The notes beneath the pieces are model-generated. The model did no database searches. It saw only the letters and a program-made list of their open reading frames with translations, and was not told the DNA's origin. From positions 6,071 through 70,070 of the forward strand of contig CAUAWV010000007.1 of NCBI GenBank assembly GCA_958433005.1: a stretch of DNA of 64,000 nt. The letters run 5' to 3'. This stretch comes from an uncultured Collinsella sp. GTDB lineage: Bacteria > Actinomycetota > Coriobacteriia > Coriobacteriales > Coriobacteriaceae. Positions 1 to 48,830 of this stretch are shown in pieces (the stretch's first letter is position 1; every line of letters begins with the position of its first letter). A program made the translations under genes and the position numbers.

Positions 1-56
1 ATACCGGCGGGTATACCTATGGCTTTGACGAGCGCGGTACGGATGGGGACCGCTAT

Positions 57-5996: not shown

Positions 5997-7214
5997 ATGC
6001 GCATCCTCATTATCACGGCACAAAAACCAGATAGCACCGGCAGCGGCACCTACCTTGCCGCGCTTGTGCGCGAGCAGATCGAGACGGGGCATCGCGCCGC
6101 CGTGCTTTGCGGTGCGGCGCCGGGTGATACCCAAGGCGAGCTGGACCGGCGTGCTGCCGTGTTTGCCGTACCGTTCGAGTCGCCCGAGCTGCCGTTTCCG
6201 ATCTGCGGTATGTCCGATGTCATGCCCTATCCCTCTACACGCTATCGTGACCTGACGCCCTCGATGCTCAAGGCGTTTGAGCGGGCATTTGCCGCTGCAA
6301 TCGATCGGGCGGTGGCTGAGTTTCGGCCCGATCTGGTGCTCTGCCATCACCTGTATCTGGTGACCGCATTGGCGCGCGAGTGCGTCCGGGGCGTGCCGGT
6401 TGTCGCCGTGTGCCATTCGACCGATCTGCGCCAGCTGCGTTCGCATGCGCTCGAGCGCGATCGCATCGTAAGTGCGGTTCGTCGGCTCGATGCTGTCTTT
6501 GCGCTCCATGCTGAGCAGGCTGAGCAGATTGGCCTGGTGTGCGGCGTCGATGCCGATCGCATCCACGTGATTGGGACGGGCTACGACCATCGCGTCTTCT
6601 GCCGCGACGCAAGCGCGGCGAGGCGGCCGGGATCGCTTGTGTACGTGGGCAAGATTTGCTTTAAAAAGGGCGTCGAGTCGCTGGTTCGAGCCGTGTCATT
6701 GCCGATTGACGATGACGTCCGCCCATCTGACTTGGTACTTGTGGGCGGCCGCGGGGACGATGCCGAGTACGCGCGTATCGAGCGCTTGACCGCGGCCTCG
6801 GATGTGCCGGTGTCGCTTGCGGGGCGCCTGGATAGCGATGAACTCGTGCGTGCCTACCGCAGTTCCGACGTCTTTGTGCTGCCTTCGTTTTACGAAGGTT
6901 TGCCGCTCGTGACGATCGAGGCCCTCGCGTGCGGCTGCAAAGTTGTGGCGACCGATTTGCCCGGCGTTCGTCCCTGGATGGAGGCGATGCTTCCCGGTGC
7001 TCCCGTGACGTGGGTGGCGTCGCCGCGTATGACGGATGTCGACACGCCCGTGGCGGCCGACCTTCCGTTGTTTGAGCGCGCACTGGCAGATGCTATCGCG
7101 CAGGCGCTTGCGGCTCCGCCTTCGACGTTCGAGCCGTCGGCGGTCTCTTGGGAAGCGTGCCTGGGGCGTATACTTAAAGTCGTTGATTTGTTGGAAGGGG
7201 GTTCGTATGGCTAA
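5997..7214 (+). CDS. Family GT4/GT1 glycosyltransferase.
   Basis: N-terminal 'MRILIITAQKPDSTGSGTY' and C-terminal 'VFVLPSFYEGLPLVTIEALACGCKVVATD' (E-x7-E motif). The start ATG 5997 overlaps the activase stop. The stop overlaps the selD start at 7207. Confidence 0.75.
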   Translation: MRILIITAQKPDSTGSGTYLAALVREQIETGHRAAVLCGAAPGDTQGELDRRAAVFAVPFESPELPFPICGMSDVMPYPSTRYRDLTPSMLKAFERAFAAAIDRAVAEFRPDLVLCHHLYLVTALARECVRGVPVVAVCHSTDLRQLRSHALERDRIVSAVRRLDAVFALHAEQAEQIGLVCGVDADRIHVIGTGYDHRVFCRDASAARRPGSLVYVGKICFKKGVESLVRAVSLPIDDDVRPSDLVLVGGRGDDAEYARIERLTAASDVPVSLAGRLDSDELVRAYRSSDVFVLPSFYEGLPLVTIEALACGCKVVATDLPGVRPWMEAMLPGAPVTWVASPRMTDVDTPVAADLPLFERALADAIAQALAAPPSTFEPSAVSWEACLGRILKVVDLLEGGSYG

Positions 7215-8256
7215 GGACACCATGAGGCTCACGTCCATGACGGCCGCGAGCGGTTGAGCCGCTAAGTTGGCTCCCGGAGCCCTCGCCCAGGTCCTGGGCG
7301 ACTTACCCAATGTGCATAACGACAACCTGCTCGTGGGGTTCGATACCTCCGACGATGCGAGCGTCTTTCGCGTAGGGGAGAACCTTGGCCTCGTGCAGTC
7401 CATCGACTTCTTCCCGCCGATGGTCGACGACCCGTTTCTGTTTGGCCAGATCGCCGCGGCCAACTCGCTTTCGGACATCTACGCCATGGGTGGGCGGCCG
7501 AGCCATGCCATGAACCTGCTGTGCATACCCAGCTGCCTGGGCGTTGAGGTTGCGGGGCAGATTTTGGCGGGCGGCGCCGACAAGTGCGTCGAGGCCGGCT
7601 GCGCCATCGCGGGCGGCCACACCATCAACGACGACGAGCCCAAGTACGGCCTGTCTGTGAGCGGCTTTGTCGCGCTCGACCGCATGCTCGCCAACAGCGG
7701 TGCGCACGCGGGCGATGTCCTGTTGCTGACCAAGGCGATCGGCTCTGGCATCATCACCACGGCCATTAAGGGTGAGCTCATCGGGCAGGACGAGGCCACA
7801 GCCATGTTTGACTCGATGCGCACCCTCAACGAGGCGCCGATTCGTCTGGCAGAGGGACTTGAGCTTCACGGCTGCACCGACATCACGGGCTTTGGCCTGA
7901 TCGGGCATGCGTGCGAGATGGCTGAGGGCTCGGGTGTGCAGGTTGAGCTTGCGTCGGGGGCGGTGCCGCTCTTTGACCAGGTGCTCGACATGGCGCGTCT
8001 GGGCATTATCCCCGCGGGCTCCTACCGCAACCAGGACTTCTTTGGCCCGCGCGTGGCTGCCGACGAGGACCTGGAGCCGGGCATGCTTGACGCGCTGTAC
8101 GATCCGCAGACCTCGGGTGGTTTGCTCATCGCGGCGCCCGCGTGGGATGTGGATGAGCTTGCGCGCCGTCTGCATGCCGAGGGGCGCGTTGCCGCCGCCG
8201 TCGGTCGCGTGTGCGAGCCGGTGCCAGGCGGTCCTGCCGTCCACGTTGTCCGCTAG
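7207..8256 (+). CDS. selD: Selenophosphate synthetase (selenide, water dikinase) SelD, a selenoprotein with in-frame UGA (Sec) at 7255..7257.
   Basis: Upstream of the ORF-track start (TTG 7267), the same frame reads MAKDTMRLTSMTAASG-U(TGA)-AAKLAPGALAQVLGDLP. This matches the SelD N-terminal motif RLTxYSHGAG(C/U)GCKIxPxxLxxIL. The rest of the protein is clearly SelD (AIR-synthase-related fold; 'GGHTINDDEPKYGLSVSGF', 'LLLTKAIGSGI'). A 5-bp hairpin GGCTC-CCGG-GAGCC begins 11 nt after the UGA, the usual bacterial SECIS spacing. Confidence 0.8.
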
Positions 8257-8317
8257 CCCGCACGTTTATGTAACTGTTTACCGTTCTCTAGAACGGCTCT
8301 TTCGAAAGGAATTTGCT

Positions 8318-8944: not shown

Positions 8945-8963
8945 CGTATTGGTTGGAGTTGCC

Positions 8964-9215
8964 ATGAGGGAGAAGCGCCCGGCGCTTGTCATCACGTTTC
9001 CCACCACGGCGGCCGCCATGGGTTGCGAGTCCCTGTGCGTTGAGCGTGGCCTTCCCGGGCGAACGATTCCCGTGCCCGGGGAGGTCGCTGCCGGCTGCGG
9101 CCTGGCGTGGAAGGCGTTGCCTGCCGATGAGGAGCTGCTGCGCAGCGAGCTTACCGCGGCAGGCGTTCCTACCGAGGGCTATACCGTGATTGATATGTGG
9201 GAGGTCGTGCGATGA
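8964..9215 (+). CDS. DUF3343-family small protein (putative Se/S-relay protein that often accompanies yedE/yedF).
   Basis: 'ALVITFPTTAAAMGCESLCVERGLPGRTIPVPGEVAAGCGLAW' has the DUF3343 pattern (…TPxxISxxCGLA…). ATG 8964 follows a GGAG-like RBS. Confidence 0.6.
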   Translation: MREKRPALVITFPTTAAAMGCESLCVERGLPGRTIPVPGEVAAGCGLAWKALPADEELLRSELTAAGVPTEGYTVIDMWEVVR

Positions 9216-10354
9216 TCTACCTGGATAACGCGGCGACGACCATGCACAAGCCTCAGACGGTCATCGATGCCGTGACGCAGGCGATGTGCTCGCTCGGCAA
9301 TGCCGGGCGCGGTGCCACGTCGGGTGCCCTCGATGCCGCTCGTACGATTCACGCTTGCCGTACCAAGCTCGCGCGCCTTTTGGGCTGCCCGAGGGCGGAC
9401 CATGTGTGCTTTACGCCCAACTCCACGGCGGCGCTCAACACCGCCATCTGTGGCGTGGTGCGTCCCGGTGACCGCGTGGTCACGACGGTGCTTGAGCACA
9501 ACTCGGTGCTGCGTCCGCTCAATCGCTTGGCGACGGAGCAGGGTGTGACGGTTGAGCATGCGGGCTGCGACGCGAACGGCGCGCTCGACTACGACGAGCT
9601 CGAGCGGCTGGTCACGCCCGGTACGCGTGCCGTGGTGGTGACGCATGCCTCTAATGTGACCGGCAACGCGGTCGACATTGCGCGCGTGGCGGCCATGGCC
9701 CATGCGGCCGGTGCGCTGGTGATCGTCGATGCCTCGCAGTCTGCCGGTACGGCGCATATCGATATGCAGGCCATGGGGCTCGACGTGGTGTGCTTTACCG
9801 GCCACAAGGGGCTCATGGGCCCGCAGGGCACCGGCGGCCTGGCCGTGGCGGAGGGCGTCGACGTGGCGCCCTGGGCCATGGGCGGCACGGGCGTGCACAG
9901 CTTCGATGCGTTGCAGCCCATGGAGTGGCCCACGCGGCTCGAGGCGGGCACGCTCAACGGTCACGGCATAGCGGGCCTTTCCGCAGGTCTCGACTTTATC
10001 GAGGCGCAAGGCGGGGTCGAGGCGATTGCGGCGCATGAGCGAGCACTGGCGGATCGCTTTCTCGCTGGCGTGCGCGAAATCCCGGAGATCAAGCTCTACG
10101 GCGCTTTTGACCAGCCGTCGCGCTCGGCGATCGTCTCGCTCAACGTGGGTGATATCGACTCTGCCGAGATCTCGGACGCGCTCATGCAGGGGTGGGGGAT
10201 TGCGACGCGCTCCGGCGCCCATTGCGCTCCGCTCATGCACCGCGCGCTGGGAACCGAGCGCCAGGGCGTGATTCGGTTCTCGTTTGGTTACTTCAATACG
10301 GCCGAGGAAGTCGACATGGCGATTGAGGCTCTGCGCGATTTGAGCTGCGATTAG
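9212..10354 (+). CDS. Class-V PLP-dependent cysteine desulfurase / selenocysteine lyase family enzyme.
   Basis: 'MIYLDNAATT' N-terminus. PLP-lysine region 'CFTGHKGLMGPQGTGGL'. Active-site Cys loop 'RSGAHCAPL'. Adjacent to selD, yedF and DUF3343. Confidence 0.8.
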   Translation: MIYLDNAATTMHKPQTVIDAVTQAMCSLGNAGRGATSGALDAARTIHACRTKLARLLGCPRADHVCFTPNSTAALNTAICGVVRPGDRVVTTVLEHNSVLRPLNRLATEQGVTVEHAGCDANGALDYDELERLVTPGTRAVVVTHASNVTGNAVDIARVAAMAHAAGALVIVDASQSAGTAHIDMQAMGLDVVCFTGHKGLMGPQGTGGLAVAEGVDVAPWAMGGTGVHSFDALQPMEWPTRLEAGTLNGHGIAGLSAGLDFIEAQGGVEAIAAHERALADRFLAGVREIPEIKLYGAFDQPSRSAIVSLNVGDIDSAEISDALMQGWGIATRSGAHCAPLMHRALGTERQGVIRFSFGYFNTAEEVDMAIEALRDLSCD

Positions 10355-22400: not shown

Positions 22401-23338
22401 TCTCGGGCGTCCCGTCCAAGGCCGGAGTGTCTACCTTTGACATCACGTGCAAGGACGCTCAGGGCGAGACCGTGACCGCGCACTTCGTGCTGGTTGTTCG
22501 GGCGAAACAGGTTGAGCTCGCGTTTGAGGGCGGCAACTTCGTCTATAGCGGTGACGCCCAGGCGCCCGAGGTCACGGGGGTTCCCAAGGCCTGCGAAGGC
22601 GACCTGAGGGTTAGGTATTACGGGACGGGCGGCACGCACTATTCGTCGAGTGAGGCCCCGACCGATGCTGGCACGTATCGCGCCGTTGTCACGCTGCGAA
22701 GCAACGGGTATATCGGCGCCGCCTCGCGCAAGTTCAGGATTGCGCCGGCGAAGCTTAAGGTAAAAGTCGACGATGTTGAACGCTTCGAGGGAGAGATGAA
22801 TCCCGCCTTTACCTCGAGCCTAAAGAGCTCGGCCGATACCTCGGGCGTGAAGGTCGAGTACTCCTGCGTCGCCGATGAGAGTTCCCCGGCGGGCGAGTAC
22901 CAGATCGAGGCGACGGTCACCGACCCGAACTTTGATGTCACGGTTGAGCCCGGTACGCTGACGGTGAAGAAGAAGCAGGAGCCTGTCGACCCGGACCCGG
23001 TGGTTCCCGATCCGGACAAGCCCGATGGACCCGATCCGGACAAGCCGGATAAGCCGGAGCCCGGCAAGCCGGACCCGGATAAGCCCGGGACGCCCGATTC
23101 CGACCAGTCGGATTCTGGGGATCCGGCAAAACCAGGTAGTTCGGCTGACTTCGCAGCCGATAAGGCAAGGGGCGATGGTGCGGAAAACCCCGGACAGAAG
23201 GCTTCGTCCAAGACGAGCGCTCAGCAGCTCGCCGATACGGGCGATCACGCGCCATTGGCCGTCGCCGTGGCTGCGGGCGCCGTTGCGCTTATCGCAATAG
23301 CGTTCGAGCTGCTGCGTCGTCGTCGATCGGACGCGTAA
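10481..23338 (+). CDS. Giant (4285 aa) cell-wall-anchored surface protein / putative adhesin. Domain order: signal peptide, Ser/Asp-rich region, 2x BspA-type leucine-rich-repeat modules, about 19 Listeria-Bacteroides (InlB B-type) repeats, 3x about 450-aa Ig/MBG-like tandem repeats with Pro/Asp-rich linkers, C-terminal LAxTG sorting signal.
   Basis: N-terminal 'MNRITAALYRFLVVYLSVAMVVTSIPLAPRAAYA|DD'. LRR consensus 'IGxxAFxxCxxLTxI'. Recurrent 'GYxFxGWY' repeats. C-terminus '...LADTG DHAPLAVAVAAGAVALIAIAF ELLRRRRSDA' is LAxTG + TM + basic tail, the class-E sortase substrate type. A single continuous ORF. Confidence 0.85.
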   Translation: MNRITAALYRFLVVYLSVAMVVTSIPLAPRAAYADDAGAVAVESEAQETDSSSDADVHAVDNASSSGEGSSSTASDQTNNAQDESSSSDTSTSTSSLAQDLSISATDSDAAKSLVATAEPSSDDSEVDPLLYEDPTVYEYAKLMPNGYVYPCDASGSVTVEIDGNDPYGSSVDGKLVTNLIVDYGVDGVPGYICEYSSNLRSVRFENSSISSIGLHAFSGCSNLADISFSGMTIGGIGTEAFSGCGSLTSLNINDVATIGSMGDAAFAWSGLRSTGLDKVVGLSSIPENAYNACSALTDTGLGGNTSITSIGVNAFKNCSRLATTGLESNTTIKTLREGCFSGTNMSGGLTLPLYSKIEELPSRAFYGSKLETVYLGCDHVVLINSTTFPKQYMTVMVPAKMVSQYESGHPKEVWESCNGSLPVPVGKMLQKIEISRDPDKMAYQPGEKISLEGMSVTFQYPHSTMDSDYEALIKEELGEYLTATPCDGDVFDESMDGEPIQLVYDDGYTRLVAYSKGNLQQAAYEYAKLMPNYYLYPCDANGNLTVEIDENNPRENSVDGRMVTNLIVDYGVDEVDAQLCADSTNLRSVRFENSSISKIGLHAFYNCPNLTDISLSGMTIGTIGKEAFYGCKSLTSLNISETTTIVSMGYAAFADSGLVSTGLDKVVGLTSIPDRAYEGCKALTDTGLDKNTSITSIGVCAFRFCSNLATTGLESNTTVQTLGHTCFYGTDLSGGLTLPYNSKIEELPEKAFGSTNLETVFFGCNHAVLINTDTFPKYNMTVMVPAKMIPKYANGHPKAVWERCNGCLPVPVGKVLEDVEISCDPNNMTYETGETISLEGMSVELHYPHTVSIWDYEALIQEELGEYLTATPCDGDVFDESMDGQPVKLVYDDGYSHFESQTKGTLQLKKPEPTSFQISYAQTIDKGERKLMDGVELSDVSGATTIDAGDEVTLDAGALGMLNDNITFKGWYDTESGKYISKEAACTFTPDKDLSLEARFKLKDYAVHVNDAQATDSSQDFAHLSVTAQNCYRNAGETVEVSAVTDNALFLGWYLGEGDDAYAASDQLDFTYTVDKADAIVSEDKTDARIEITPRYCAPQASVVLSVDGVDENGQPLGQFLSTGLYGIGSRVTVVAVPMPGYVFDYATDALGNVVFTGDDGPSYTFVLEGDVQYTAHFREETDPDESLAALKAALIAAITAAAVLATMYGLGEIVDPIAADAVIEIGMADNIEDVAAVGTKVLKEIKDIIDDHKKPKPHGDHKIEIITTAQPEVGGVVTGGGIHYEGTVATLEAVANPGYRFVCWKENGVEVSTSPLKTMTITDLTPEVVKMTAVFEKKVEITAVAEADGIQADFSTGCTASPVKQSITRGDQAMVTASEGPDYAFVGWFEDGVEVSPERTYIFKAEVDRHLVARFRKADKTILVNTDPFDSAEVLCDGVPVVDGKVRAKDGDILTFTMRPKVRPDNPEKTYRFVEWRETDAQGITIANKQEVCEYRVNGNARIEAVMDGRDAHTVRAEADPLEGGTVTLKRGETAGMVLEVPEGERVTAEATPSEGYIFDGWYLSNGGSDVTSTLVSSERSYTFEPITDCVIQAKFTRACKVDVVVEPAAAMAGKYLVHGEGYCMKGEPATLSIELTAEASKQFTFKGWYDAKTDLLLGTDPSYLEFYPEDVECTVRAVFEENTYTVTAKAKKTFVERGTVEIEGHPGASSVTCGYGDTVMLKAKANDGYRFDHWKDDSGKEYDTAELVVKVTKSDTYTAIFTDSKPEVMVTADSWLGGTVTCNGTVVKPTTDTFKLGETLHLTAKAHPGFLFRGWCVNGRLKSLKHETSLVAKARGKTGHCVITAGFVPIDTVCVPLADPAEGGTVKASRVLADRGAEVALKATPNPGYVFTGWYTADGTFESADAEFTCHQERSHVHIARFMAKSYEVDATTVVDSGTGSLIESSVAGWVEGTGTVEAGHAATLTAHALSGYAFEYWADASGAVVSRDTTYHVVPTSDTALQAVFSAKQYTVDVSCEESMGTVEGAGAYAAGQVATVRAVAAEDTAFVGWFRNGTCVSSKKTYRFTVREDTSLYALFASGSYVVHTVASPAEGGAVSGFGGYESGDRATLCATANTGYSFAGWTDDKGDSVSENADYTVKVTGNATYTATFTPKSYQVVLSASDDNVGTLSGEGSYQFGDTVELNATPMGTKRFVGWYVLDAEGNKSLLSCDAHCWVKLDEDMVEGLEDDTLELQAVFADPYEVTVTGEVVVKDKTSNRGCRVTGSGSFAVGDQVELTAVAGMGYRFVGWSTDKEGTSIVETATTLDVTATQDITYYAQFESDGQVTITVTGSSIFRGTALLVDGIPAGSRSYDRGDMFMAIAIPWKKHHFSHWVDDAGVTVSYSAFYIGTAKENRQLTAVFYETGCDVQVATYPKDAGFSMVALGTGGSYHSAAIMFTVPHKGWKFKYWVDENGMPVGFTPVINRVVFGNRTFTAVYERATMSVTAVDPRQGGHVEGSSEDESLGYAVTNEVENGESTTLTAVPDAGYVFDGWYARNDDGSLGDEPLSTDATWTFVPEDNMTVEARFAEAPKYKVTARAVNGSVDSESALVATDGKVTLSATPDEGCYLTRVTVAEEAGDDGSAGNAYDLDISDYKGGAYEVTLSGVSAPQQVTFEFAKAAAPEVLAQPQDASAYEGDPVDLSVAAEAGRNVRVHAAVSSGSAADVKLSYQWYRVSDDSGKAVALKGEAGETLSIAQLDSDGEGEYFCRITQNYLGTVTKTDTEHAKVSIVPREALVFNGRVLPVATAHDEYRAEIAGATGGKAPYAYNLDDVEVPEGMQLTLADDGSGALVLSGVPAATGVHSFKIRCTDDLGNKCDAHFALLVKAKEAPLTFEGQTFTYNATAQAPELSGVPEGCEDDVKLTYVGTGDTHYSSDKAPVDAGTYRAVVTLDAKGYVGNASCDFTIEKAPVDISIETSDVTYDGARHSAAVAVAGLDASAYSVVYRGIDGTSYGPTALEPCDSGNYRVTVKVTDPNYQGKKSAEFSITKASQVITGTTSYSGVYGGDPIVFNNVAQTPVSFELVDSDDDASPVSIKGRCATVKAAGTARVVAHAAASRNYLAAEDVELSVSVAPAQLLVKVDDAERFEGQENPEFTSSLVSRCDTSDVKVTYFCSANKKSPAGEYQIDAAVADPNFDVAVDPGTLTVKKKPEHYKVTAKAVNGSVDNDLVSVVEGGDATLSATPDEGCYLERVTVAQAGSDATVDLDISDYKGGAYKVSLSDVTASQEVTFEFAKADAPRVVAQPQDVSVHEGDSAVLSVVADAGKNVADHATSSTGCAAEVELSYQWFRMVNGKAVALDGETGETLSLADLDDEQAGEYFCRITQRYLDTEKQTDSDCASVSVVAWDTLVFNGDLLPAASAHSTYIATIAGAAGGKAPYEYAWDETKLPDGLKLSRTSGGLTLSGVPSKTGVSAFEITCTDVRGEAMTARFAFVVQAKRVKLTFADSDFTFNGASQAPEVSGAPKVCKGDLKVWYYGCGSTQYSSTDAPTDAGAYRAVVTLRSHGYIGAAACEFEIAPAKLKVKVDDAERFEGEANPAFTSSLESAVDTSGVKVEYSCDADESSPAGVYQIGATVTDPNFDVEVVPGTLTVKKKQEPVDPDPDNPDPGQPDPNPDPDNPEPDNPDNPDPDNPDPDQPDPNPDPDNPEPDNPDPDPKPDPDNPDPDNPEPDNPDKPERFEVTAKAVNGSVDNASVTVDAGGDVTLSATPDEGCYLERVTVTEAGSDKAIDLDISGYEGGAYKVTLSGVTASHEITFEFAKADAPKVIAQPQDASAYEGDAVVLSVAAEAGESVADHAGSSTGPAGDVELSYQWFHMVDGKAVALEGETGETLLIEGLDGDCAGEYFCRVTQRYLGTEMQADSDRAVVSVVPRDALVFNGGLLPVARAHSTYRATILGAAGGEAPYEYTWDEAKLPDGFKLTRTAGGLTLSGVPSKAGVSTFDITCKDAQGETVTAHFVLVVRAKQVELAFEGGNFVYSGDAQAPEVTGVPKACEGDLRVRYYGTGGTHYSSSEAPTDAGTYRAVVTLRSNGYIGAASRKFRIAPAKLKVKVDDVERFEGEMNPAFTSSLKSSADTSGVKVEYSCVADESSPAGEYQIEATVTDPNFDVTVEPGTLTVKKKQEPVDPDPVVPDPDKPDGPDPDKPDKPEPGKPDPDKPGTPDSDQSDSGDPAKPGSSADFAADKARGDGAENPGQKASSKTSAQQLADTGDHAPLAVAVAAGAVALIAIAFELLRRRRSDA
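10892..13200 (+). repeat. Tandem duplication (2 x about 1.16 kb) encoding two LRR + Ig-like modules inside the giant gene.
   Basis: The protein segment 'YEYAKLMPNGYVYPCD...LVYDDGYT' recurs as 'YEYAKLMPNYYLYPCD...LVYDDGYS' at about 75% amino-acid identity. Confidence 0.8.
18205..22985 (+). repeat. Three large tandem coding repeats (about 1.86 kb, 1.35 kb, 1.35 kb) in the 3' part of the giant gene. Each starts 'VTAKAVNGSVD...TLSATPDEGCYLERVTV' and ends '...TDPNFDV.V.PGTLTVKKK'.
   Basis: Near-identical protein blocks start at about 18205, 20065 and 21641. Repeats 2 and 3 are separated by Pro/Asp linkers. Confidence 0.8.
21412..21640 (+). repeat. Short-period tandem nucleotide repeat encoding a (P-D-N/P-D-P/E-P-D) linker. 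A second, shorter tract lies at about 22990..23110.
   Basis: Reiterated 'gacccggataatccggagccggacaatcc'-type units, translating to 'PDPDNPDPGQPDPNPDPDNPEPDNPD...'. Confidence 0.75.
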
Positions 23339-24906: not shown

Positions 24907-24983
24907 CGGGACGTGGCGCAGTTTGGTAGCGCGCCTGCTTTGGGAGCAGGATGACGCAGGTTCAAATCCTGTCGTCCCGACCA
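24907..24983 (+). tRNA. tRNA-Pro (anticodon TGG), CCA encoded.
   Basis: Manual cloverleaf: acceptor CGGGACG/CGTCCCG; D-stem GCGC/GCGC; anticodon stem CCTGC/GCAGG with loop TTTGGGA; T-arm GCAGG-TTCAAAT-CCTGT. Confidence 0.85.
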
Positions 24984-24989
24984 TATCTT

Positions 24990-25063
24990 GCGGGCGGCGT
25001 TCAATGGTAGAACCCCAGCCTTCCAAGCTGATGACGCGGGTTCGATTCCCGTCGCCCGCTCCA
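24990..25063 (+). tRNA. tRNA-Gly (anticodon TCC), CCA encoded.
   Basis: Acceptor GCGGGCG/CGCCCGC; D-arm GTTC-AATGGTA-GAAC; anticodon loop CTTCCAA; T-loop TTCGATT. Confidence 0.8.
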
Positions 25064-26963: not shown

Positions 26964-29186
26964 ATGGAGAAGCATAAAGTGATCTGCCCGTATTGCGGCG
27001 CCGGTTGCCAGTTTAACCTCTTGGTCCAAAACGGCCAGGTCGTGGGTACCGAACCGCTCAACGGCATCACCAACCAGAGCGAGCTGTGCCTTAAGGGCAT
27101 GAGCGGCTACGACTTCATCAACGACACCAAGATCTTGACTCCTCGCGTACTGCACCCGATGATCCGCCGCACTAAGGGCGCGGATCTTGAGCGCGTAAGC
27201 TGGGACGAGGCACTGGATTTCACCGCATCTAAGATGCAGGCCATAATTGACGAATATGGTCCTAACGCTGTCATGACCACCGGCTCTTCGCGAGGCGGCG
27301 GCAATGAGGCGAACTACGTCATGCAGAAGTTTACGCGCGCGTGCATCGGCACCCACAGCGTGGACAACTGCGCCCGTACTTGACACGGCCCTACTGTCCT
27401 CGGTCTGATGGACACGGTTGGTTCAGGTTGCATGTCATGCTCCATCCCCGGTATGGAGGATGCGGGCTGCATTTTCCTCTTCGGCTATAACCCTGCCGAT
27501 TCGCACCCCATCGTCGCAAGGCGTATCGTGCGAGCCAAAGAAAAGGGTTGCAAGATCATCGTCGCCGACCCGCGCCATATCGAAACCGCGCGTATCGCCG
27601 ATATCTACCTTCCGATCAAGAACGGTTGCAACGTTGCGTTCCTCAACGCCTTTGCCAACTGCTTGGTCAACGATGGCCTCTACGACAAGGAATTCGTCGC
27701 CGAGCACACGAACGGCTTTGACGAGTGGTGGGAGACCATCAAGAACTACACTCCCGAATCCGTACAGGACATCACGGGTGTCGAGCCCGCGCTGATCCAC
27801 CAAGCTGCCGAGATGTACGCCACGGCGAAGCCCTCTGCCATCATTGGCTGGGGCATGGGCGTATGCCAGCAGAAGCAGAACCTGAAGACGGTGCACACCA
27901 TCGCCTCCATCGCCTGCGTTGCCGGCCAGATCGGCAAACCCAATTCCGGCCTCGCGCCCGTGCGCGGTCAGAACAACGTCCAGGGCTCCTGCGATATGGG
28001 CATGCTGCCCAACCTGTATCCTGGCTACCAGAAAGTCACCGACCCGGCTGTGCGTGCCAAGTTTGCCAAGGCTTGGGGCGTGCCCGAGGAAAAGCTCCCG
28101 CTCGAGGAGGGCTACAAGCTCACCGACCTGGGCCACCTGGTCGACGAGGGCAAGGTGCACTGCTTCTACAACTACGGCGAGGACCCGGTGCAGACCGAGC
28201 CCGATTCGGCCGGTATGCGCAAGACGCTCTCCGAGCTGGACCTGTTCATTTGCCAGGACATCTTTATGACGCAGACGACCATGCTCGCCGACGTCATCCT
28301 GCCCGCCACCTCTTGGGGCGAGCACGAGGGTGTCTTTACCGCATCCGACCGTAGCTTCCAGCACTTTGACGCGGCCGTTCCGCCCAAGGGCGAGTGCCGC
28401 CACGACTGGGAGATCTTCGCGGACCTGTCCACGCGCATGGGCTATCCCATGCACTACGACAACACCGAGCAGATCTGGAACGAGTGCATTAGCCTGTGCC
28501 CCAACTTTGTGGGCGCGACCTACGAGAAGATGGCTCCCGAGGGCGGCTACGCCCAGTGGCCCGTCAAGAGCACCGATGTGAACGACCACGGCACGGCCGA
28601 CATGTTCGCTGGTGGCAAGTTCACCACCAAGGACGGCCGCGCCAACCTGATGGCGCACGACTGGGAGGCGCCCTCCGAGCTTCCCGACGATGAGTACCCG
28701 CTCATCCTGTGCACCGTCCGCGAGGTCGGCCACTACAGCTGCCGCTCGATGACCGGCAACTGCAAGACGCTGGCGCTGCTTGCCGACGAGCCCGGCTTTG
28801 TCCGCATGAATCCCGCGGACGCCCAGGCGCGCGGCATCAAGAACGGCGACATCGTCTCGATTCACAGCCGCCGCGGCCAGGTATACAGCCGCGCCGACGT
28901 GAGCGATCGCATCAACAAGGGCACGGTCTATATGACCTACCAGTGGTGGATCGGCAAGTGCAACGAGCTGACCATTCACAAGGTCGACCCGGTCTCGCAT
29001 ACGCCCGAGGACAAGTTCTCCGCCTGCCAGGTCGACGCTATCGCCGACCAGGTCTGGGCCGAGGGCGAGGTCGAGCGTCAGTACACCGAGCTCAAGCAGG
29101 CTCTGGTGGACGCCGCCGCTCCCCAGGACGTTGAGCCCGGCGCCGCCAAGTTCGACGATGAGACGCACGTGAACCAAATCGTGTAG
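26964..29186 (+). CDS. fdhF: Formate dehydrogenase H catalytic subunit (molybdopterin; selenocysteine-containing) with in-frame UGA (Sec) at 27381..27383.
   Basis: ORFs 26913..27383 and 27408..29186 are in one frame and are separated only by TGA within 'SVDNCART-U-HGPTVLG'. This is the conserved FdhF Sec site (E. coli 'VDNCARV-U-HGPSV'). N-terminal Cys cluster 'CPYCGAGCQ'. A hairpin with a GGTCTG-containing loop starts 11 nt after the UGA (SECIS candidate, 27394..27415). Confidence 0.85.
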
Positions 29187-41785: not shown

Positions 41786-41907
41786 GGTACCGTCTGTTTG
41801 ACGTTGGGCCTCCCGCGGGGCGTTGCCGTGCGGGAGGCTTTTTTGGCCTGGGGCCCGGTGCCGGGCTGTTGACCTGTTGTGTTTGGCTGGTGAAAGGGGT
41901 AATCGAG

Positions 41908-44025
41908 ATGGCATCTGCTGTGGAGCGTGACGGTCGCGCCGTGGTGACCACATGCGGGGGATGCTATGCCGATTGCGCCTTTGCGGCACGCGTTGAGGAC
42001 GGCTGCGTGGTGGCCGAGTTGCCGGTGCCGGGGCACCCGTGCGCTGCGCGTGCCCTGTGCGCCCGCGGACGGCATCGCCTGGCAATGCCGTTTGACGAGC
42101 GCGACCGCATCGTGCACCCCATGCGCCGACGAGCTGATGGCTCGGGGTTCGATGCGATTTCGTGGGACGAGGCGTTTGCCCAGATTGCCGAGCGTCTTTT
42201 GGGGATTGTTGACGAACGTGGCCCCCGTGCGCTGGGCATGACGCTCGGCGTGCCCTCGTTCGACCGCTACTGGGCATATCGCTTTATGCATGCGCTGGGC
42301 TCGCCCAACGTGTATGGTGCCGACGGAGCCTGCGAGGTAAGCCGACTTACCGGTTGGGAGCACAGCCTAGGCTACAGCCCCGCCTCCGACCTGGCACATA
42401 CCGATTGCATCATGTACCTGGGGCGTTCCATTGTCGATTCGTCGACGATGGGGTCCGTTGATGCGCTCAACGATGCACGCCGGCGCGGGGCGAAGATCAT
42501 CGTTGTCGACCCCCGGCGCAGCGGCTCGGCTGCGCTTGCCGACCGCTGGCTGCGCGTGCGCCCGGGCTGCGATTTGGCGTTGCTGCTGGGTATCGCACAT
42601 GTGTTGATTGCCGAGGACCTGTACGATCACGAGTTCGTTGACCGCTATACCACAGGCTTTGACGAGCTGGCGCAGGCGGCCCGTGCTTGGACGCCCGAGT
42701 GGGCCGAGTCGATGTGCGACGTGCCGGCCGCAGAGATTGTCGCCACGGCGCGCGATCTCGCTGCCGCCGCGCCTGCCGCTGTGGTGGATGCGGGCTTTCA
42801 TGGTGGCATCGGTATCGCGTATGCCAATAGCACCCAGACCGCGCGCGCTATCTGCTTGGTCGATGTGCTGCTGGGCTGCATCGGGCATGCGGGTGGCGCG
42901 CTCAATCCGCCCACGCCGCTTGTGTTGGGCGACCTCGATTCCGCGCGCTTTGCGACGCCGCCGGTACCGCGCGGGCCCAAGCTGGGGTCCGAGCGCTATC
43001 CACTGGTCGATCCGGTGCGCGGCCTGTGCACGACCATCGGCCAGTCGATTCTGACCGGCGATTTGCGTGGGCTCATCGTCTATGCCAGTAACCCCGGTGC
43101 GGGCTATGGCAATGCACAGGCTTGGTTGGGTATTTTGCAGCAGCTCGACTTGCTCGTGACGATTGATATCCGCTGGTCCGAGACAGCGCGCGCTTCTGAC
43201 TTCGTGCTGCCCGATGTGACGTATCTGGAGGCCGACCGCGGTGTGGGCACAGTCGTGTGTGCCAACGATTCGCGGGTGTTCTACCGCAACGCCGTGCTGC
43301 CTGTGCAGCATGACGACACACGTCCCGGTCGGGAGATTTTTGCCGGTCTGGCGCAGGCGTGTGGGGCTGGCGAGTACTTCCGGTTTACGTCTGACGACCT
43401 GGCGGCTGCCCAGGTGGCGCCTTTTGGGATCGATCTGGACGAGCTCAAGGAGCGCGGCTGGGCCGACACGGGTGTTGCGTTGCCGTCGCGTACGGGCGAG
43501 CCGGCGATTCCCTTGGATGGCGGCAAAATTGCGCTGGCAAGCGACGTATGGGAACGAGCCGGCCTGGGTCGTGTACCCAACTGGATCGCCCCCATGGTGG
43601 AGCCGGGCCTGGGGATGTTTCGCCTCATTAGCGGCAACCGTCCCTTTGAGTCGCATACCTCGCGAAGGCTCGCGGCCCAAGGTGCCGCCGAGGCTGGGTC
43701 GGACCTGGATGCCGTGCAGATGAATGTCGATGCTGCCGCGCACATGGGCATCGCCGACGGCGAGATCGTCGAACTCGTGAGTGATATGGGCCGCGACCGC
43801 GTGCGCGTGGAGACGACGCCTTATCTGCATCCGGCGTGCATCTTTACGTCGGCCGCCCCCGGCGGGCGTTCGCTTTGCGCCGATGCCGGTGGCGCTCAAG
43901 CCTTGGGCGTGGGCCCGCTCGACCATACGCCGTTGCGTTGGGACCCGTTGACGGGTGCCGCGCTCACTCAGGAAAACGCCGTTCGCGTGGAAAAGATCGT
44001 CGCGCGCGGGGATAATGACGAGTAA
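41908..44025 (+). CDS. Molybdopterin (bis-MGD) oxidoreductase catalytic subunit of unknown substrate, apparently cytoplasmic (no twin-arginine signal).
   Basis: N-terminal Cys cluster 'TCGGCYADC...C'. MGD-fold regions ('IIVVDPRRS', 'PGCDLALLLGIAHVLI'). C-terminal 'GIADGEIVELVSDMGRDRVRVETT' beta-barrel. ATG 41908 follows an 'aaagggg' RBS. Confidence 0.7.
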   Translation: MASAVERDGRAVVTTCGGCYADCAFAARVEDGCVVAELPVPGHPCAARALCARGRHRLAMPFDERDRIVHPMRRRADGSGFDAISWDEAFAQIAERLLGIVDERGPRALGMTLGVPSFDRYWAYRFMHALGSPNVYGADGACEVSRLTGWEHSLGYSPASDLAHTDCIMYLGRSIVDSSTMGSVDALNDARRRGAKIIVVDPRRSGSAALADRWLRVRPGCDLALLLGIAHVLIAEDLYDHEFVDRYTTGFDELAQAARAWTPEWAESMCDVPAAEIVATARDLAAAAPAAVVDAGFHGGIGIAYANSTQTARAICLVDVLLGCIGHAGGALNPPTPLVLGDLDSARFATPPVPRGPKLGSERYPLVDPVRGLCTTIGQSILTGDLRGLIVYASNPGAGYGNAQAWLGILQQLDLLVTIDIRWSETARASDFVLPDVTYLEADRGVGTVVCANDSRVFYRNAVLPVQHDDTRPGREIFAGLAQACGAGEYFRFTSDDLAAAQVAPFGIDLDELKERGWADTGVALPSRTGEPAIPLDGGKIALASDVWERAGLGRVPNWIAPMVEPGLGMFRLISGNRPFESHTSRRLAAQGAAEAGSDLDAVQMNVDAAAHMGIADGEIVELVSDMGRDRVRVETTPYLHPACIFTSAAPGGRSLCADAGGAQALGVGPLDHTPLRWDPLTGAALTQENAVRVEKIVARGDNDE

Positions 44026-44077: not shown

Positions 44078-45535
44078 ATGAGCGATAGCCAGAACATGTC
44101 CGATGAGGTGCGCGCCCGCCTGCGCGCCATTCCTTCCGTCAACGAGCTGCTTGCCGAGTGGCCGGTGGTGAAGGCGGCGGGGGAGACCTGCGACGCGGTG
44201 GTGCACGCCGCCGTCACGGCCGAACTCGACGAGGAGCGCGCCGCCATTCGCGCCGGTGCCGCCCCGCGCTCTAAGCGCGACCTGGCCTCGGCCATCGAGT
44301 GGCGTGCGCATCGCTCCGCACTGCCGAGCCTGCGCCCCGCCGTCAACGCCACGGGTGTGGTCATCCATACCAATCTGGGCCGTGCCCCGCTTGCGGAGTC
44401 GGCGGCAAAGGCCGTGGCCGAGGTTGCGCGCGGGTATAGCACGCTCGAGTACAGCGTCGACACCTGTTCGCGCGGGTCGCGCAAGGAGCACGCCGCGCAA
44501 CTGATCCGCTCGCTCACCGGTGCCGAGGACGCGCTGGTCGTCAACAACAATGCCGCCGCGGTGCTGCTGGTGCTTGCCACCCATGCCGCGGGCAAAGAGG
44601 TCATCGTGAGCCGCGGCGAGCTTGTCGAGATCGGCGGCAGCTTCCGCATCCCCGATGTCATGGAGGCCTCGGGTGCCAAGCTCGTTGAGGTCGGGGCCAC
44701 CAACCGCACGCACCTGTCGGACTACGAGCGCGCCATCACGCCCGATACGGCGATGATCCTCAAGGTCCATCCTTCTAACTATCGCATTGAGGGTTTCCAC
44801 GAGGAGGTGGGCTCTCGGGAGCTTGCGGCGCTTGCTCACAAGCATGGCCTGCTGTTCTACGAGGACCAGGGTTCGGGCGCGCTGCTGCCCGACGACATCT
44901 TGGTGCGCGGCGGCGAGGAGCCCACACCGGTTTCGGTCGCGGCGGGGCTCGATCTGGTGTCTTGCTCGGGCGATAAGCTGCTCGGAGCCGCACAGGCGGG
45001 CATTATCATGGGCCGTCGCGATCTGGTCCAGGCCTGTGGGTCGCATCCGCTTATGCGCGCCCTGCGCCCGGGCAAGTTGGCGCTCACGGCGCTCGAGGCC
45101 ACGCTGCGCATCTACATGGACGGCGCCGATGTTGCCCATCGCGATATTCCGGTGCTCAGCATGCTTACGCTGCCGCAGGCTCATTTGGAGCGACGTGCCC
45201 GTAAGCTGCGTGATCGTATGGTCGCCGGGCTCGATAAGGCTGGTTGCCCGTGTGCCGTTGAGTTGGAGATTGTCGAGGAATCGTCGACCCCCGGTGGCGG
45301 CTCGCTGCCTACCGTGGAGCTGCCCACGATGTGCGTTGCCGTGCGTCTTGTTGACGAGCGCCTGACGGTCGATGCGCTCAAGCGCTCTCTTGTCCAGGAC
45401 TTCGACACGCCGGTCGTCACGCGAACCTCGCACGATCGCATTTTGTTTGACGTCCGTACGCTCGTGGGCGATCGCGATATCGAGACGGCGGCATCGACGC
45501 TCGTCGCGTGCGTTGAGAAGGCGATTGTTCGATGA
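44078..45535 (+). CDS. selA: L-seryl-tRNA(Sec) selenium transferase SelA.
   Basis: PLP-lysine motif 'CSGDKLLGAAQAGIIMG'. 'NATGVVIHTNLGRAPL'. 485 aa. Confidence 0.85.
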   Translation: MSDSQNMSDEVRARLRAIPSVNELLAEWPVVKAAGETCDAVVHAAVTAELDEERAAIRAGAAPRSKRDLASAIEWRAHRSALPSLRPAVNATGVVIHTNLGRAPLAESAAKAVAEVARGYSTLEYSVDTCSRGSRKEHAAQLIRSLTGAEDALVVNNNAAAVLLVLATHAAGKEVIVSRGELVEIGGSFRIPDVMEASGAKLVEVGATNRTHLSDYERAITPDTAMILKVHPSNYRIEGFHEEVGSRELAALAHKHGLLFYEDQGSGALLPDDILVRGGEEPTPVSVAAGLDLVSCSGDKLLGAAQAGIIMGRRDLVQACGSHPLMRALRPGKLALTALEATLRIYMDGADVAHRDIPVLSMLTLPQAHLERRARKLRDRMVAGLDKAGCPCAVELEIVEESSTPGGGSLPTVELPTMCVAVRLVDERLTVDALKRSLVQDFDTPVVTRTSHDRILFDVRTLVGDRDIETAASTLVACVEKAIVR

Positions 45536-47499
45536 GTGAGGTTCAGGCGCTGGTGGAGTGTCCCGTTATCGTTGGCACGGCGGGCCACGTCGACCACGGT
45601 AAGTCGGCGCTGATCGAGGCGCTGACCGGCAAGAATCCCGACCGTCTGGAGGTTGAACGCCGTCGCGGTATGACCGTGGAGCTTGGCTTTGGCGAGCTGG
45701 CGCTCCCGAGTGGCAAGATCGTCGGCCTGGTCGACGTGCCGGGCCACGCGCATTACCTGCGCGCTATGGTGCAGGGCGCCACGGGTATCGACGTGGCCGT
45801 GCTGGTGGTTTCGGCCGTCGAGGGCGTGATGCCGCAGACCCGCGAGCACGTGCGTGTGCTGGAGCTGCTGGGCGTTACGCATATGGTGGTCGCGCTGACG
45901 ATGTGCGACCTGGCCGATAACGAAATGATTGAGCTGGCCGAGCTCGACGTGGACGATTTTCTTTCGGATACCGTGTTTGCCGACGCGTCGATCGTGCCCG
46001 TGTCGTCCAAGACCGGCGCGGGGATCGATGACCTGCTTGCTGCACTCGACGAGCAGGTTGCCGCTTGCTGGGATGCCTGCCGTGCCCGTGCCGAGACCAC
46101 CGATGCCGCGCCGCGGCTGCCCATCGACCGCTGCTTTACGATCAAGGGCGCCGGTGCCGTGGTGACGGGAACGCTGCACGATGCGCCGGTTGCGGTGGGC
46201 GACGAGCTGATGGCGTTACCGTCGCGTACGGTCTGTCGTGTACGCGGGATTCAGGTGCATGGCGATACGCCGCGGGCGTTGCCCGGCCAGCGTGTGGCGC
46301 TCAACTTGGTGGGCGATGCTGTCGCCGCGCTCGATCGCGGTGAGATGCTCGGCGTGCCGGGCCGCTTTGGCCAGTCGATGCGCTTTATGATGACGTTTAC
46401 GTATTTGGGCCGCGAGGGCGCCAAGCCGCGCGTGCTCGAGTCGGGCGCGCGTGTGCACGTGATGGCGGGTACGGCCGAGGTTGTCGGCCGCATCATGCTT
46501 TTGGAGGGCGAGGCCCCCATGGCGGTGGGAGAGACGCGAGTGGTGCAGGTACGCTTGGAGGAACCGCTTCCGCTGCGCGCCGGCGACCATGCCGTGGTGC
46601 TGTCCTATTCGCCGGTCATGCTTATTGGTGGAGGGCGCGTGCTGTTGTCGCGATGCCGCCGTTCGCGCGAACTTACTGAGGGGGAACGCGTGCTGTACGC
46701 GGCGCTCGAGTCCGGCGATATCGCGGGCGGTGTGGGCGCTTGGCTGGCGTTGCGGACGCTGCCGGTTAAGGCGATTGATGTTGCCGAGGCTTTGGATCTT
46801 GGTGTCGGCGAGGTCGATGCCGCACTGCGCGGGTTGGTGGCGCAGGGCTCCGTTCGCAAGCTTGCCGTGGGTGATGCGGGCCTCTTGGCGGACGCCGTGG
46901 TGCTCGACGCCGCGATGGATGCACTGGCGGCGACCCTGTCAGCCATGCACGCGGCGGCTCCCAAGGAGACAGGCTTTACGCCCGGCGCCGTTGCCCATGC
47001 TGCGTGGCCTGCCGCTGATGAAGGCGTTGCCGCGGCCCTGATTTACGAGGGCTGCTCGCGCGGCGTGTGTGCCTCCGAGGGCGCCGAGGTGTTCGACCCG
47101 CACTCCGCTGCCGCTGCGGCGCGTGTGGTACGCGAGGCCTGCGAACGTATCGTTGCCTTGCTGGACGAAGCCGGCCTCGATGCACCGACGTTGCCCGATA
47201 TGGGCGAGCGGTTGCAGCTCGATCGCGACACCATGACGCGTGCCCTGCGCGAGCTTTCGCTCAACCGCTCGATCGTTAAGGTCGAGCGCGACGTTGCCCT
47301 GTCCGCTGCCGCCGAGGCCCATGCGCGCGAGCTCGTCGCCGCCGCCATTGAGGCAGCCGGCGGCGCTGCCACCACGAGCGTGCTGCGCGAGGCCCTGGGC
47401 GTGTCGCGCAAACGGGCCATCAGCATCTTGGAACACCTGGATGCCGTGCGCTTTACAGTGCTCGACAAGGAGGCCGGCGGCCTGCGCTCCCTGCGCTAG
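45532..47499 (+). CDS. selB: Selenocysteine-specific translation elongation factor SelB.
   Basis: GTPase motifs 'GTAGHVDHGKSAL', 'DVPGH'. Long C-terminal winged-helix extension (655 aa total). 4-nt overlap with selA. Confidence 0.85.
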   Translation: MSEVQALVECPVIVGTAGHVDHGKSALIEALTGKNPDRLEVERRRGMTVELGFGELALPSGKIVGLVDVPGHAHYLRAMVQGATGIDVAVLVVSAVEGVMPQTREHVRVLELLGVTHMVVALTMCDLADNEMIELAELDVDDFLSDTVFADASIVPVSSKTGAGIDDLLAALDEQVAACWDACRARAETTDAAPRLPIDRCFTIKGAGAVVTGTLHDAPVAVGDELMALPSRTVCRVRGIQVHGDTPRALPGQRVALNLVGDAVAALDRGEMLGVPGRFGQSMRFMMTFTYLGREGAKPRVLESGARVHVMAGTAEVVGRIMLLEGEAPMAVGETRVVQVRLEEPLPLRAGDHAVVLSYSPVMLIGGGRVLLSRCRRSRELTEGERVLYAALESGDIAGGVGAWLALRTLPVKAIDVAEALDLGVGEVDAALRGLVAQGSVRKLAVGDAGLLADAVVLDAAMDALAATLSAMHAAAPKETGFTPGAVAHAAWPAADEGVAAALIYEGCSRGVCASEGAEVFDPHSAAAAARVVREACERIVALLDEAGLDAPTLPDMGERLQLDRDTMTRALRELSLNRSIVKVERDVALSAAAEAHARELVAAAIEAAGGAATTSVLREALGVSRKRAISILEHLDAVRFTVLDKEAGGLRSLR

Positions 47500-47535
47500 A
47501 TTGACTGCTCGGTTTGGTAAAATACCGCCGCACTT

Positions 47536-47632
47536 GGGAACGGATGGGCTCCGGTGGGCTCTGCGGTCCTCAAAACCGTTACGAGGCGTGCAAAACGTCT
47601 TGGATGTGTTCGATTCACATACGTTCCCGCCA
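47536..47632 (+). tRNA. selC: tRNA-Sec (selC) candidate, anticodon TCA, about 94 nt + CCA.
   Basis: Manual fold: acceptor GGGAACG(G)/(A)CGTTCCC; 6-bp D-stem GGGCTC/GGGCTC (two G.U pairs) with a 4-nt loop CGGT as in E. coli selC 'CUCCGGUG'; anticodon stem GCGGT/ACCGT; loop CCTCAAA, so TCA; long variable arm of about 24 nt; T-arm ATGTG-TTCGATT-CACAT; discriminator G; CCA. It lies 37 nt after selB and is masked by a spurious ORF (47514..) in the track. Caveat: position 33 is C, not the usual U. Confidence 0.7.
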
Positions 47633-47786
47633 TACGCTACCAGCGCTTTTGTGCTCGCGGTCTTGCTGCGTGCCGCAAAGGCGCTGTTTTGTTTTTGCAC
47701 GAGCTTTTCGTAGCGCCGCTATTTCGACGGCTGTATTTAGCTTCGTGCACTGGGTTTCGAGCATGCCGATGGGGGTGGTTTGCCGT

Positions 47787-48419
47787 ATGACTACCGTAAG
47801 ACGGGCCGATCTTTCTTGCGTCGTTCAAGCGGGCGGGCTGTCCTCGCGCATGGGCTGCGATAAGGCACGGATGTTGTTTTGCGGCGAGCCTTTGATCGAG
47901 CGCGTGCTGGGCCGCCTGGCTCAGGTTGCCGGCGAGCTGGTCGTGACGACGTCGCGTCCCAGCGAGCTTGCCTATCTTGAGGAGCGCGCGTTTGGCGGCT
48001 TGGTGCCGCATGTGGTGGCGGACCTTGAAGGGCCGGCGGGTGCCATGCGCGGCATCGCGAGCTCATTGGCCGCCGCCCGATTGCCGCTCGTGGCGATCGT
48101 CGCCTGCGATATGCCGTTTGTCTCGCCGGAACTCATCGGCACGCTTGCCGATCGTGTTGAGGCCGAGACACTCGACGTGTGCGTGCCGCGCGAGGAGCGG
48201 GGGATTGAGCCGCTTTGCGCCGTCTGGCGCCGTGACGCGTGTGCGCCGGTTGCCCAAGAGCTGCTCGCCTGCGACCGCCAGCGCATTCGCTGCCTGATCA
48301 ATCGCGTTCAGGCTGGTTATATGGATGAGCCGCAGATCGTTAAGGCCACGGGCTCGACGCTCTGCTTCGAGAACGTCAATACGCCCGAGGAGTTTGCGGC
48401 GGCCGAGTTACTCGCCTAG
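47787..48419 (+). CDS. mobA: Molybdenum cofactor guanylyltransferase MobA.
   Basis: 'VVQAGGLSSRMGCDKARM', 'IVACDMPFV'. An alternative ATG lies at 47763. The ORF-track 5' extension overlaps selC and is rejected. Confidence 0.75.
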   Translation: MTTVRRADLSCVVQAGGLSSRMGCDKARMLFCGEPLIERVLGRLAQVAGELVVTTSRPSELAYLEERAFGGLVPHVVADLEGPAGAMRGIASSLAAARLPLVAIVACDMPFVSPELIGTLADRVEAETLDVCVPREERGIEPLCAVWRRDACAPVAQELLACDRQRIRCLINRVQAGYMDEPQIVKATGSTLCFENVNTPEEFAAAELLA

Positions 48420-48434: not shown

Positions 48435-48830
48435 ATGTCTCACGATATTTGCCCTGACACGGGAGAGCCTTGCACTTGCGATGGTTCCGAGCCTTGTACC
48501 TGCGGCTGTGGTGGCTGTGGGCATACGGCCGAGGAAGAGGCCGCGGCAGCTGCGTATCGCGATTCGCATCGGGCGACTTCGCTAAGCGATGCCCTCGACC
48601 ACGAACGCAAGATCATCGTATCGTTCGACAGCACCTTCGATGTGATGGAATGCGAGCAGCTGTGCCTGGATGCCGGCGTGCCCGGGCGCATTATGCCTTT
48701 GCCCGGCTCCATTACCGCAGGCTGCGGTCTGTGCTGGGCCATGCCGTTCTCGGGCGATGCGCTCGCCGCCTTTCGCGCTGCCACCGAAGGCCGCATAACC
48801 CCCGCCGACTACCATCAGCTCGTCCTCTAA
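48435..48830 (+). CDS. DUF3343-domain protein with a Cys-rich N-terminal extension (putative metal/selenium-binding relay protein).
   Basis: N-terminal 'CPDTGEPCTCDGSEPCTCGCGGCGH' (9 Cys in 30 aa). The C-terminal 'IIVSFDSTFDVMECEQLCLDAGVPGRIMPLPGSITAGCGLCW' matches the DUF3343 pattern, like the gene at 8964. Confidence 0.55.
   Translation: MSHDICPDTGEPCTCDGSEPCTCGCGGCGHTAEEEAAAAAYRDSHRATSLSDALDHERKIIVSFDSTFDVMECEQLCLDAGVPGRIMPLPGSITAGCGLCWAMPFSGDALAAFRAATEGRITPADYHQLVL

Follow-up and report, generated by a model that had tools for sequence, protein, structure and literature searches.

The window analysed here, a 64-kb stretch of Collinsella DNA, contains four tRNA genes according to ARAGORN, one of which is a tRNA-SeC gene (anticodon tca) located directly downstream of selA and selB (Table 1). 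The Rfam model of tRNA-Sec (RF01852, gathering score 47) matches positions 47536..47628 over its full length (model positions 1-91) with 63.1 bits (E 1.8e-10), and outcompetes at this position the generic tRNA model of the same clan (CL00001). The minimum free energy fold of the 97-nt gene is a cloverleaf of -39.1 kcal/mol (z = -2.5 against shuffles). A preliminary description of this DNA had placed a tRNA-Sec at 47536-47632, which are exactly the limits called by ARAGORN, and had proposed ARAGORN and Infernal with RF01852 as checks; both turned out positive. It had also called the gene unannotatable by ORF, which holds for ORF logic only, since standard tRNA finders detect selC routinely. The selC gene described here is an ordinary gene, and its identification is correct.

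Table 1. Annotated features of the selC locus and selenium-related genes of the window. Parts of selC are given in raw numbering of the gene (raw 34 = canonical position 33; raw G94 = discriminator G73).
Feature	Position	Strand	Description or basis
selD (selenophosphate synthetase)	7207..8256	+	In-frame TGA 7255-7257, SG-U-AAK
yedF	8318-8944	+	Downstream of selD
SclA-like cysteine desulfurase/selenocysteine lyase	9197-10354	+	Downstream of selD
fdhF-type formate dehydrogenase	26964..29186	+	In-frame TGA 27381-27383, Sec140, CART-U-HGPTV
selA (L-seryl-tRNA(Sec) selenium transferase)	44078..45535	+	Pfam SelA, E 1.6e-132
selB (Sec-specific elongation factor)	45532..47499	+	Pfam GTP_EFTU, Beta-barrel_SelB, SelB-wing_3
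Candidate extended -10 element TGgTAAAAT	47515..47523	+	12 nt before tRNA position 1; conservation only
selC, tRNA-Sec(UCA)	47536..47632	+	94 nt + encoded CCA = 97 nt; ARAGORN, Rfam RF01852, MFE fold, covariation
selC acceptor stem	raw 1-8/86-93		7 Watson-Crick pairs + G8.A86 mismatch as 8th pair
selC acceptor/D linker	raw A9, U10		2 nt
selC D stem	raw 11-16/21-26		GGGCUC/GGGCUC, 6 bp, two G-U pairs
selC D loop	raw 17-20		CGGU, 4 nt
selC anticodon stem	raw 28-32/40-44		Plus pair 27:46, U45 bulged
selC anticodon loop	raw 33-39		CCUCAAA, 7 nt; anticodon UCA raw 35-37
selC variable arm	raw 47-54/60-67		8 bp + 5-nt loop
selC T arm	raw 69-73/81-85		5-bp stem, loop UUCGAUU
selC 3' end	raw G94 (G73)		Followed by encoded CCA
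Intrinsic-terminator-like hairpin and U-run	47641-47686; U-run 47687-47696	+	U-run TTTTGTTTTT; fold + terminator scan
MobA-like molybdenum cofactor nucleotidyltransferase	47763..48419	+	NTP_transf_3 from residue 102 of 301-aa ORF
Putative Se/S carrier-like protein (DUF3343 type)	48435..48830	+	Pfam Se_S_carrier, E 5e-14

The anatomy of the gene is that of a bacterial tRNA-Sec. Each acceptor strand comprises 8 nt and the T stem 5 bp, which together form the 13-bp helix of the bacterial 8/5 type, and the 6-bp D stem with its 4-nt loop, the UCA anticodon in a 7-nt loop, the long variable arm, G73 and CCA are all present. The D stem closing CGGU, the UCA anticodon, G73 before CCA and the length of 94 nt plus CCA had each been correctly read before; the long variable arm is also there, but it measures 21 nt (22-23 nt with flanking bases) instead of about 24 nt. 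According to the RF01852 alignment, canonical position 33, which is nearly always a U in elongator tRNAs, is a C in the CCUCAAA loop of this gene.

A SelB scan of one genome per GTDB species returned 80 loci, in which SelB orthologues are full length. The best locus (L001) is 100% identical and about 40 others belong to Collinsella or Coriobacteriaceae. In practically every Collinsella locus that reaches far enough, ARAGORN places a tRNA-SeC of 97 nt after selB. It also calls a tRNA-SeC in L033, a MAG of a less closely related member of the Coriobacteriaceae, and in L048 and L066, which represent two other bacteria. Among nine distinct sequences, 96.6% of the cells are paired and 17 of the 33 pairs are altered on both sides. 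None of 500 shuffles did as well as the proposed tRNA-Sec structure, and sliding the 3' partners by 1-3 columns reduced pairing to 39-50%. The D stem is paired in 100% of the cells across the nine sequences, with changes on both sides in four of its six pairs. The tRNA of the window and L001 differs from the single sequence shared by 24 'main' Collinsella loci at two positions, C to U at raw 27 and G to A at raw 46 (window 47562 and 47581). This compensatory replacement of C27-G46, present in at least 24 other Collinsella, by U27-A46, present in the window and L001 alone, defines a sixth pair of the anticodon stem and leaves U45 bulged. Reading these window-specific differences as a U27.U43 mismatch was rejected, since the alignment puts the changes at raw 27 and 46, where they compensate each other. 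The innermost acceptor pair, raw 8:86 (window 47543/47621), is G.A in the C33 Collinsella clade and in the unrelated U33 genes of L066 and L048, G.G in L033 and G-C in two deeper Collinsella loci (L020 and L023). From this comparison, a non-Watson-Crick eighth acceptor pair seems common in these tRNA-Sec lineages.

In 26 Collinsella loci, the tRNA is 97.4% identical to that of the window, as against 88.6% in the 36 nt that precede it and 84.6% in the 130 nt that follow. The 24 nt directly upstream of selC (GTTTGGTAAAATACCGCCGCACTT) are nearly invariant in these loci and stay fixed although the distance between selB and selC varies from 36 to about 454 nt among Collinsella. The longest spacers are found in L007 and L022 (about 454 nt), followed by L037 (about 255 nt) and by L006, L019 and L031 (about 149 nt). 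In the window, the spacer covers 47500-47535; selC had been correctly described as lying directly downstream of selA-selB, but it starts 36 nt, and not 37 nt, after the selB stop codon (TAG, 47497-47499). In L020, L023 and L024, the downstream flank is only about 50% identical and the upstream 24 nt are still conserved. A sigma-70 two-hexamer scan around selC found no classical promoter. Downstream, the hairpin begins 9 nt after CCA; the fold of 47633-47720 reaches -38 kcal/mol (z = -2.69), and the inner part of the hairpin (47670-47684) was also detected by the terminator scan. Because of the conserved upstream 24 nt with TGgTAAAAT and the downstream hairpin followed by a U-run, we propose that selC is transcribed alone, as its own small unit in which the extended -10 element would direct synthesis, RNase P would remove a short leader and the hairpin with its U-run would act as terminator.

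The selB gene overlaps the selA stop by 4 nt, and the order selA-selB-selC is a common one, shared with many bacteria. As previously described, selD, selA, selB and the UGA-containing fdhF and selD all lie in the window; together with selC they form a Sec trait that spans 7207-47632, i.e., about 40.4 kb, in agreement with the earlier figure of under 45 kb. From their in-frame TGA codons, fdhF and selD are the predicted users of the selC tRNA, selD being also a member of the pathway. The 60 nt following the fdhF UGA fold no more stably than shuffles (z = +0.55); a hairpin directly after the selD TGA (z = -1.85) is suggestive only. The genes selD, yedF and that of the SclA-like protein (7207-10354, forward strand) are grouped in a second cluster devoted to selenium handling, which lies about 37 kb away from selABC. 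This second cluster is separated from a tRNA-Pro(UGG)/tRNA-Gly(UCC) pair by a single ORF of 4285 amino acids (10481-23338, forward strand), presumably encoding a giant protein of the surface/adhesin type.

A Hyf-type hydrogenase cluster, HycI and a FocA-type formate channel are encoded between fdhF and selA. The Hyf/HycI/FocA/fdhF set fits a putative formate hydrogenlyase, which would need both Sec and the molybdopterin guanine dinucleotide cofactor. A PhsA-like molybdopterin oxidoreductase (41869-44025) was considered as a further selenoprotein and rejected, the scan having given no in-frame TGA junction. The tRNA-Pro/tRNA-Gly pair is located 20.5 kb upstream of selB in the window (24907-25063), and about 2.6-3.0 kb upstream of selB in L020, L023, L024, L025, L027 and L029 (~1030-1416 vs. 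4001). The approximately 19 kb that are extra in the window hold fdhF, the Hyf-type hydrogenase cluster, HycI, FocA and the PhsA-like oxidoreductase, and this arrangement suggests that the formate-hydrogenlyase block next to the tRNA pair has been inserted or rearranged. Collinsella aerofaciens is listed as a selenium user that also has the 'third selenium utilisation trait' (PMC2432076), the use of selenium being already known in this genus. The selC gene completes the set expected in gut Collinsella (selD, selA, selB and selC, with FdhF and SelD) and carries little weight as a gene call.

The C at position 33, which had been pointed out as unusual, is real: it is present in 27 independent Collinsella assemblies and is therefore not a sequencing error. 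C33 is found in the window and L001, in the 24 loci with one identical sequence, in L024 and in L026, with 27 species-level genomes reported. U33 is found in the deeper Collinsella L020 and L023, in the Coriobacteriaceae MAG L033 and in L048 and L066. Since L024 combines C33 with otherwise ancestral states, as in L020 and L023, the distribution fits a single U-to-C change within Collinsella that was then inherited. The clade keeps a full-length SelB (88-96% identity in the C33 Collinsella species), and fdhF and selD of this genome have retained their UGA, so that the C33 tRNA is evidently in use in the C33 species. On this comparative evidence, C33 is compatible with function and not the sign of a defective gene.

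We searched for C33 in other bacteria by scanning metagenome contigs for the pattern CCTCAAA, a gap of 26-48 nt, GGTTCGANTCC, a gap of 10-11 nt and GCCA. The T-loop of this pattern leaves out Collinsella itself, and the scan was run for C33 only. At least 120 stretches matched and, among the matches listed, ARAGORN identified a C33 tRNA-SeC in 37 of 80 loci. All nine representatives tested score above the RF01852 threshold (60.7-81.1 bits). Most of these metagenome genes are located within selD-selC-selA-selB or selA-selB-selC clusters, as detected by tblastn with SelA, SelB, SelD and FdhF of the window. Clustering at 85% identity produced ten C33 clusters including Collinsella, i.e., about nine further unrelated families among the matches listed. 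The nearest U33 sequence is closer than the nearest other C33 cluster for Collinsella (0.97 vs. 0.76), L137 (0.91 vs. 0.80), L083/L147 (0.86 vs. 0.78), L111 (0.81 vs. 0.77) and L120 (0.81 vs. 0.74). Several C33 clusters being nearer to U33 sequences than to other C33 sequences, parallel origins are to be considered, and the sequence comparison indicates that the change from U33 to C33 arose repeatedly in bacterial tRNA-Sec lineages.

The same pattern was searched in IMG/VR in both versions. The U33 version retrieved a true tRNA-SeC in 44 of 80 loci among the matches listed, hence at least 44, whereas the C33 version gave 14 matches and no true tRNA-SeC in this host-biased collection. Judging from these collections, C33 is a recurrent minority state of tRNA-Sec. 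Among the non-Sec tRNAs of the DNA sets examined, 296 of 306 distinct sequences have U33 (96.7%), and those without it belong mostly to phage-like tRNA arrays or correspond to doubtful calls. For instance, a phage-like array with 23 tRNAs (L095:78-6955), as well as those of L201 and L273, contain several C33 or G33 tRNAs (Glu-UUC, Lys-UUU, Val-UAC and others). It may be that viral tRNAs depart from U33 more often, or that the ARAGORN calls are weak here. Two tRNA-Sec genes of 99 nt each, separated by about 255 nt, are present on one metagenome contig (L135), at 2873-2971 on the forward strand and 3227-3325 on the reverse strand, one with C33 (60.7 bits with Rfam) and one with U33 (68.7 bits). 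The search for sel genes on this 5.9-kb locus was negative. This pair could represent a duplication in transition or an integration-site duplicate.

We found no mention of C33 in the literature on position 33 of bacterial tRNA-Sec, including the Secmarker supplements, which is not proof of absence. A clade-fixed and recurrent C33 is apparently a modest, undocumented variant of a known molecule. We put forward tentatively, at slightly less than even odds, that C33 represents a functional natural variant of tRNA-Sec, with U33 being replaceable specifically in a SelB-delivered tRNA, in at least five to ten independent lineages, one of them an entire clade of Collinsella that is abundant in the human gut. 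If true, this would mean that the need for U33 is relaxed, or put to use, in SelB/SECIS-dependent decoding.

In the Sec pathway of E. coli, SerRS serylates tRNA-Sec, SelA converts the seryl-tRNA with selenophosphate provided by SelD, and SelB delivers the product to UGA codons marked by a SECIS element. By analogy, the Collinsella tRNA would be charged with serine by SerRS through G73 and the long variable arm. SelA, which would recognise the 6-bp D stem and the 4-nt D loop, would turn it into Sec-tRNA(Sec) with selenophosphate from SelD, and SelB-GTP, recognising the 13-bp acceptor/T helix, would bring it to the UGA codons in fdhF and selD. From these structural hallmarks, the tRNA is predicted to be serylated by SerRS, converted by SelA and bound by SelB, but rejected by EF-Tu. 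The N3-H donor that U33 contributes to the U-turn is lost with C33, which may have a functional cost or be compensated; C33 may also be subject to C-to-U editing. In this scheme, C33 would be a derived substitution, fixed in one Collinsella clade and near-neutral.

We thus read 47536..47632 as selC, the single-copy-type tRNA-Sec gene of this Collinsella, probably forming its own small transcription unit and carrying a derived C33 that is compatible with function and most likely near-neutral, with a probability of about 95%. It is hardly conceivable that the locus is instead the coding 5' part of a long MobA isoform, or a UGA suppressor unrelated to Sec, such as an allo-tRNA-like serine tRNA. 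An uninterrupted 301-aa ORF (47514..48419), opening at TTG 47514, does span selC. However, its MobA-like domain begins only at residue 102 and the NCBIfam MobA models, although scoring below their cut-offs, align from residue 14-18 of the protein starting at 47763. The candidate Met starts are 47763, 47769 and 47787, and the true start is near 47763. The portion of the ORF over selC is therefore best seen as an artefactual 5' extension of the MobA-like gene, in line with the preliminary description, which had called it a spurious extension of the mobA N-terminus. Moreover, the terminator-like hairpin lies between the tRNA and 47763, and species differ by hundreds of nucleotides in the distance from selB to the tRNA while the tRNA is fixed. 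The UCA anticodon, taken alone, would suit a suppressor too, but the 8/5 geometry, the 6-bp D stem and the 4-nt D loop are those of the tRNA-Sec model rather than of the generic tRNA model. Allo-tRNAs have an 8/4 or 9/3 acceptor/T geometry, without the D arm of tRNA-Sec and without linkage to sel genes; the gene described here, with its 8/5 geometry and tRNA-Sec D arm adjoining selAB, was rejected as a member of this group.

The peculiarities of the tRNA itself could be taken as lesions of a decaying gene, Sec decoding being carried out by another copy or being lost. C33 departs from a near-universal nucleotide, G8.A86 is a mismatch at the base of the acceptor stem, and the Rfam score of the window tRNA (63.1 bits) is lower than those of its U33 relatives in L020 (71.2) and L033 (75.5). 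We consider such decay very improbable: the tRNA is near-invariant in 27 species-level genomes while its flanks diverge, the double change at 27:46 preserves the pair, and the gene is in syntenic position with its U33 orthologues in L020, L023 and L033. Furthermore, the whole clade has intact, full-length selA and selB, fdhF and selD keep in-frame TGA codons at their catalytic sites, unrelated U33 tRNA-Sec have the G.A pair as well, and C33 tRNA-Sec genes reside within the sel operons of other lineages. A less remote, though still unlikely, explanation is that C33 is adaptive and tunes UGA decoding, for instance through a changed geometry of the anticodon loop that would affect SelB-dependent accommodation, RF2 competition, the modification of U34 or A37, or how sensitive the tRNA is to an anticodon nuclease. 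The repeated independent origins, always from U to C, the retention of C33 through the diversification of 27 Collinsella species and the 96.7% of U33 among non-Sec tRNAs of the same DNA sets would agree with selection, as would the special-purpose nature of the other natural non-U33 tRNAs of the literature (eukaryotic initiators and the Candida CUG decoder). Against it, C33 and U33 tRNAs of Collinsella show no correlated change elsewhere, and C33 is a minority state (no true C33 against at least 44 U33 in IMG/VR). A transition at a tolerated site would also recur by chance, and fixation in a clade needs only one event. C33 is most likely a tolerated, near-neutral variant of the U-turn nucleotide, which is the most economical reading since it involves a single transition, without correlated change in the tRNA, that has recurred in parallel.

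Position 33 is among the most conserved nucleotides of tRNAs, and 27 Collinsella species that retain the Sec machinery are fixed for C33, which also occurs in unrelated sel operons. If confirmed, this would constitute a natural experiment on the weight of the U-turn uridine under delivery by SelB as opposed to EF-Tu, and C33 could inform the design of engineered tRNA-Sec for the production of recombinant selenoproteins.

The Collinsella tRNA resembles E. coli selC and the RF01852 model in its UCA anticodon and in its 8+5 geometry with a linker of 2 nt. As in these, a D stem of 6 bp closes a 4-nt YGGU loop, the anticodon stem comprises six pairs, the variable arm is long and G73 precedes an encoded CCA. 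It differs from them by C33, by the G.A innermost acceptor pair and by a 27:46 pair that requires a bulged U45. Its linkage to selA-selB is shared with the bacterial 8/5 tRNA-Sec family; in E. coli, selC lies apart from selAB. Bacterial tRNA-Sec variants described with Secmarker include genes with an anticodon-stem bulge at 43a, selABC operons and a 7/5 (12-bp) acceptor/T helix (PMC5330540). The bulge on the 3' side of the anticodon stem and the selA-selB-selC order of Collinsella recall these variants; in contrast to their 7/5 helix, Collinsella has 8 nt between the T stem and G73, i.e., an 8/5 helix with a non-Watson-Crick eighth pair.

Concerning position 33, Santesmasses et al. reported U33 as 100% conserved in 553 eukaryotic tRNA-Sec, without comment on bacteria (PMC5330540). 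According to Grosjean and Westhof, U33 is conserved in elongator tRNAs, the only exceptions listed being eukaryotic initiators (C33) and Candida tRNA-Ser(CAG) (G33) (PMC5041475). As in eukaryotic initiator tRNA-Met and the Candida tRNA, a non-U33 tRNA is here associated with specialised decoding via a dedicated route; the domain of life, the tRNA identity and the delivery factor are different, and roles have been discussed for these exceptions. Parallels in the anticodon loop are provided by the metagenome C33 tRNA-Sec (for example, L081, L111, L123, L137 and L120), which share with Collinsella the CCUCAAA loop and mostly the U31-A39 closing pair (GGUCCUCAAAACC). Their identity to the Collinsella tRNA is only 72-80%, and they are closer to U33 sequences than to one another, which argues for parallel origins and not for a single C33 family.
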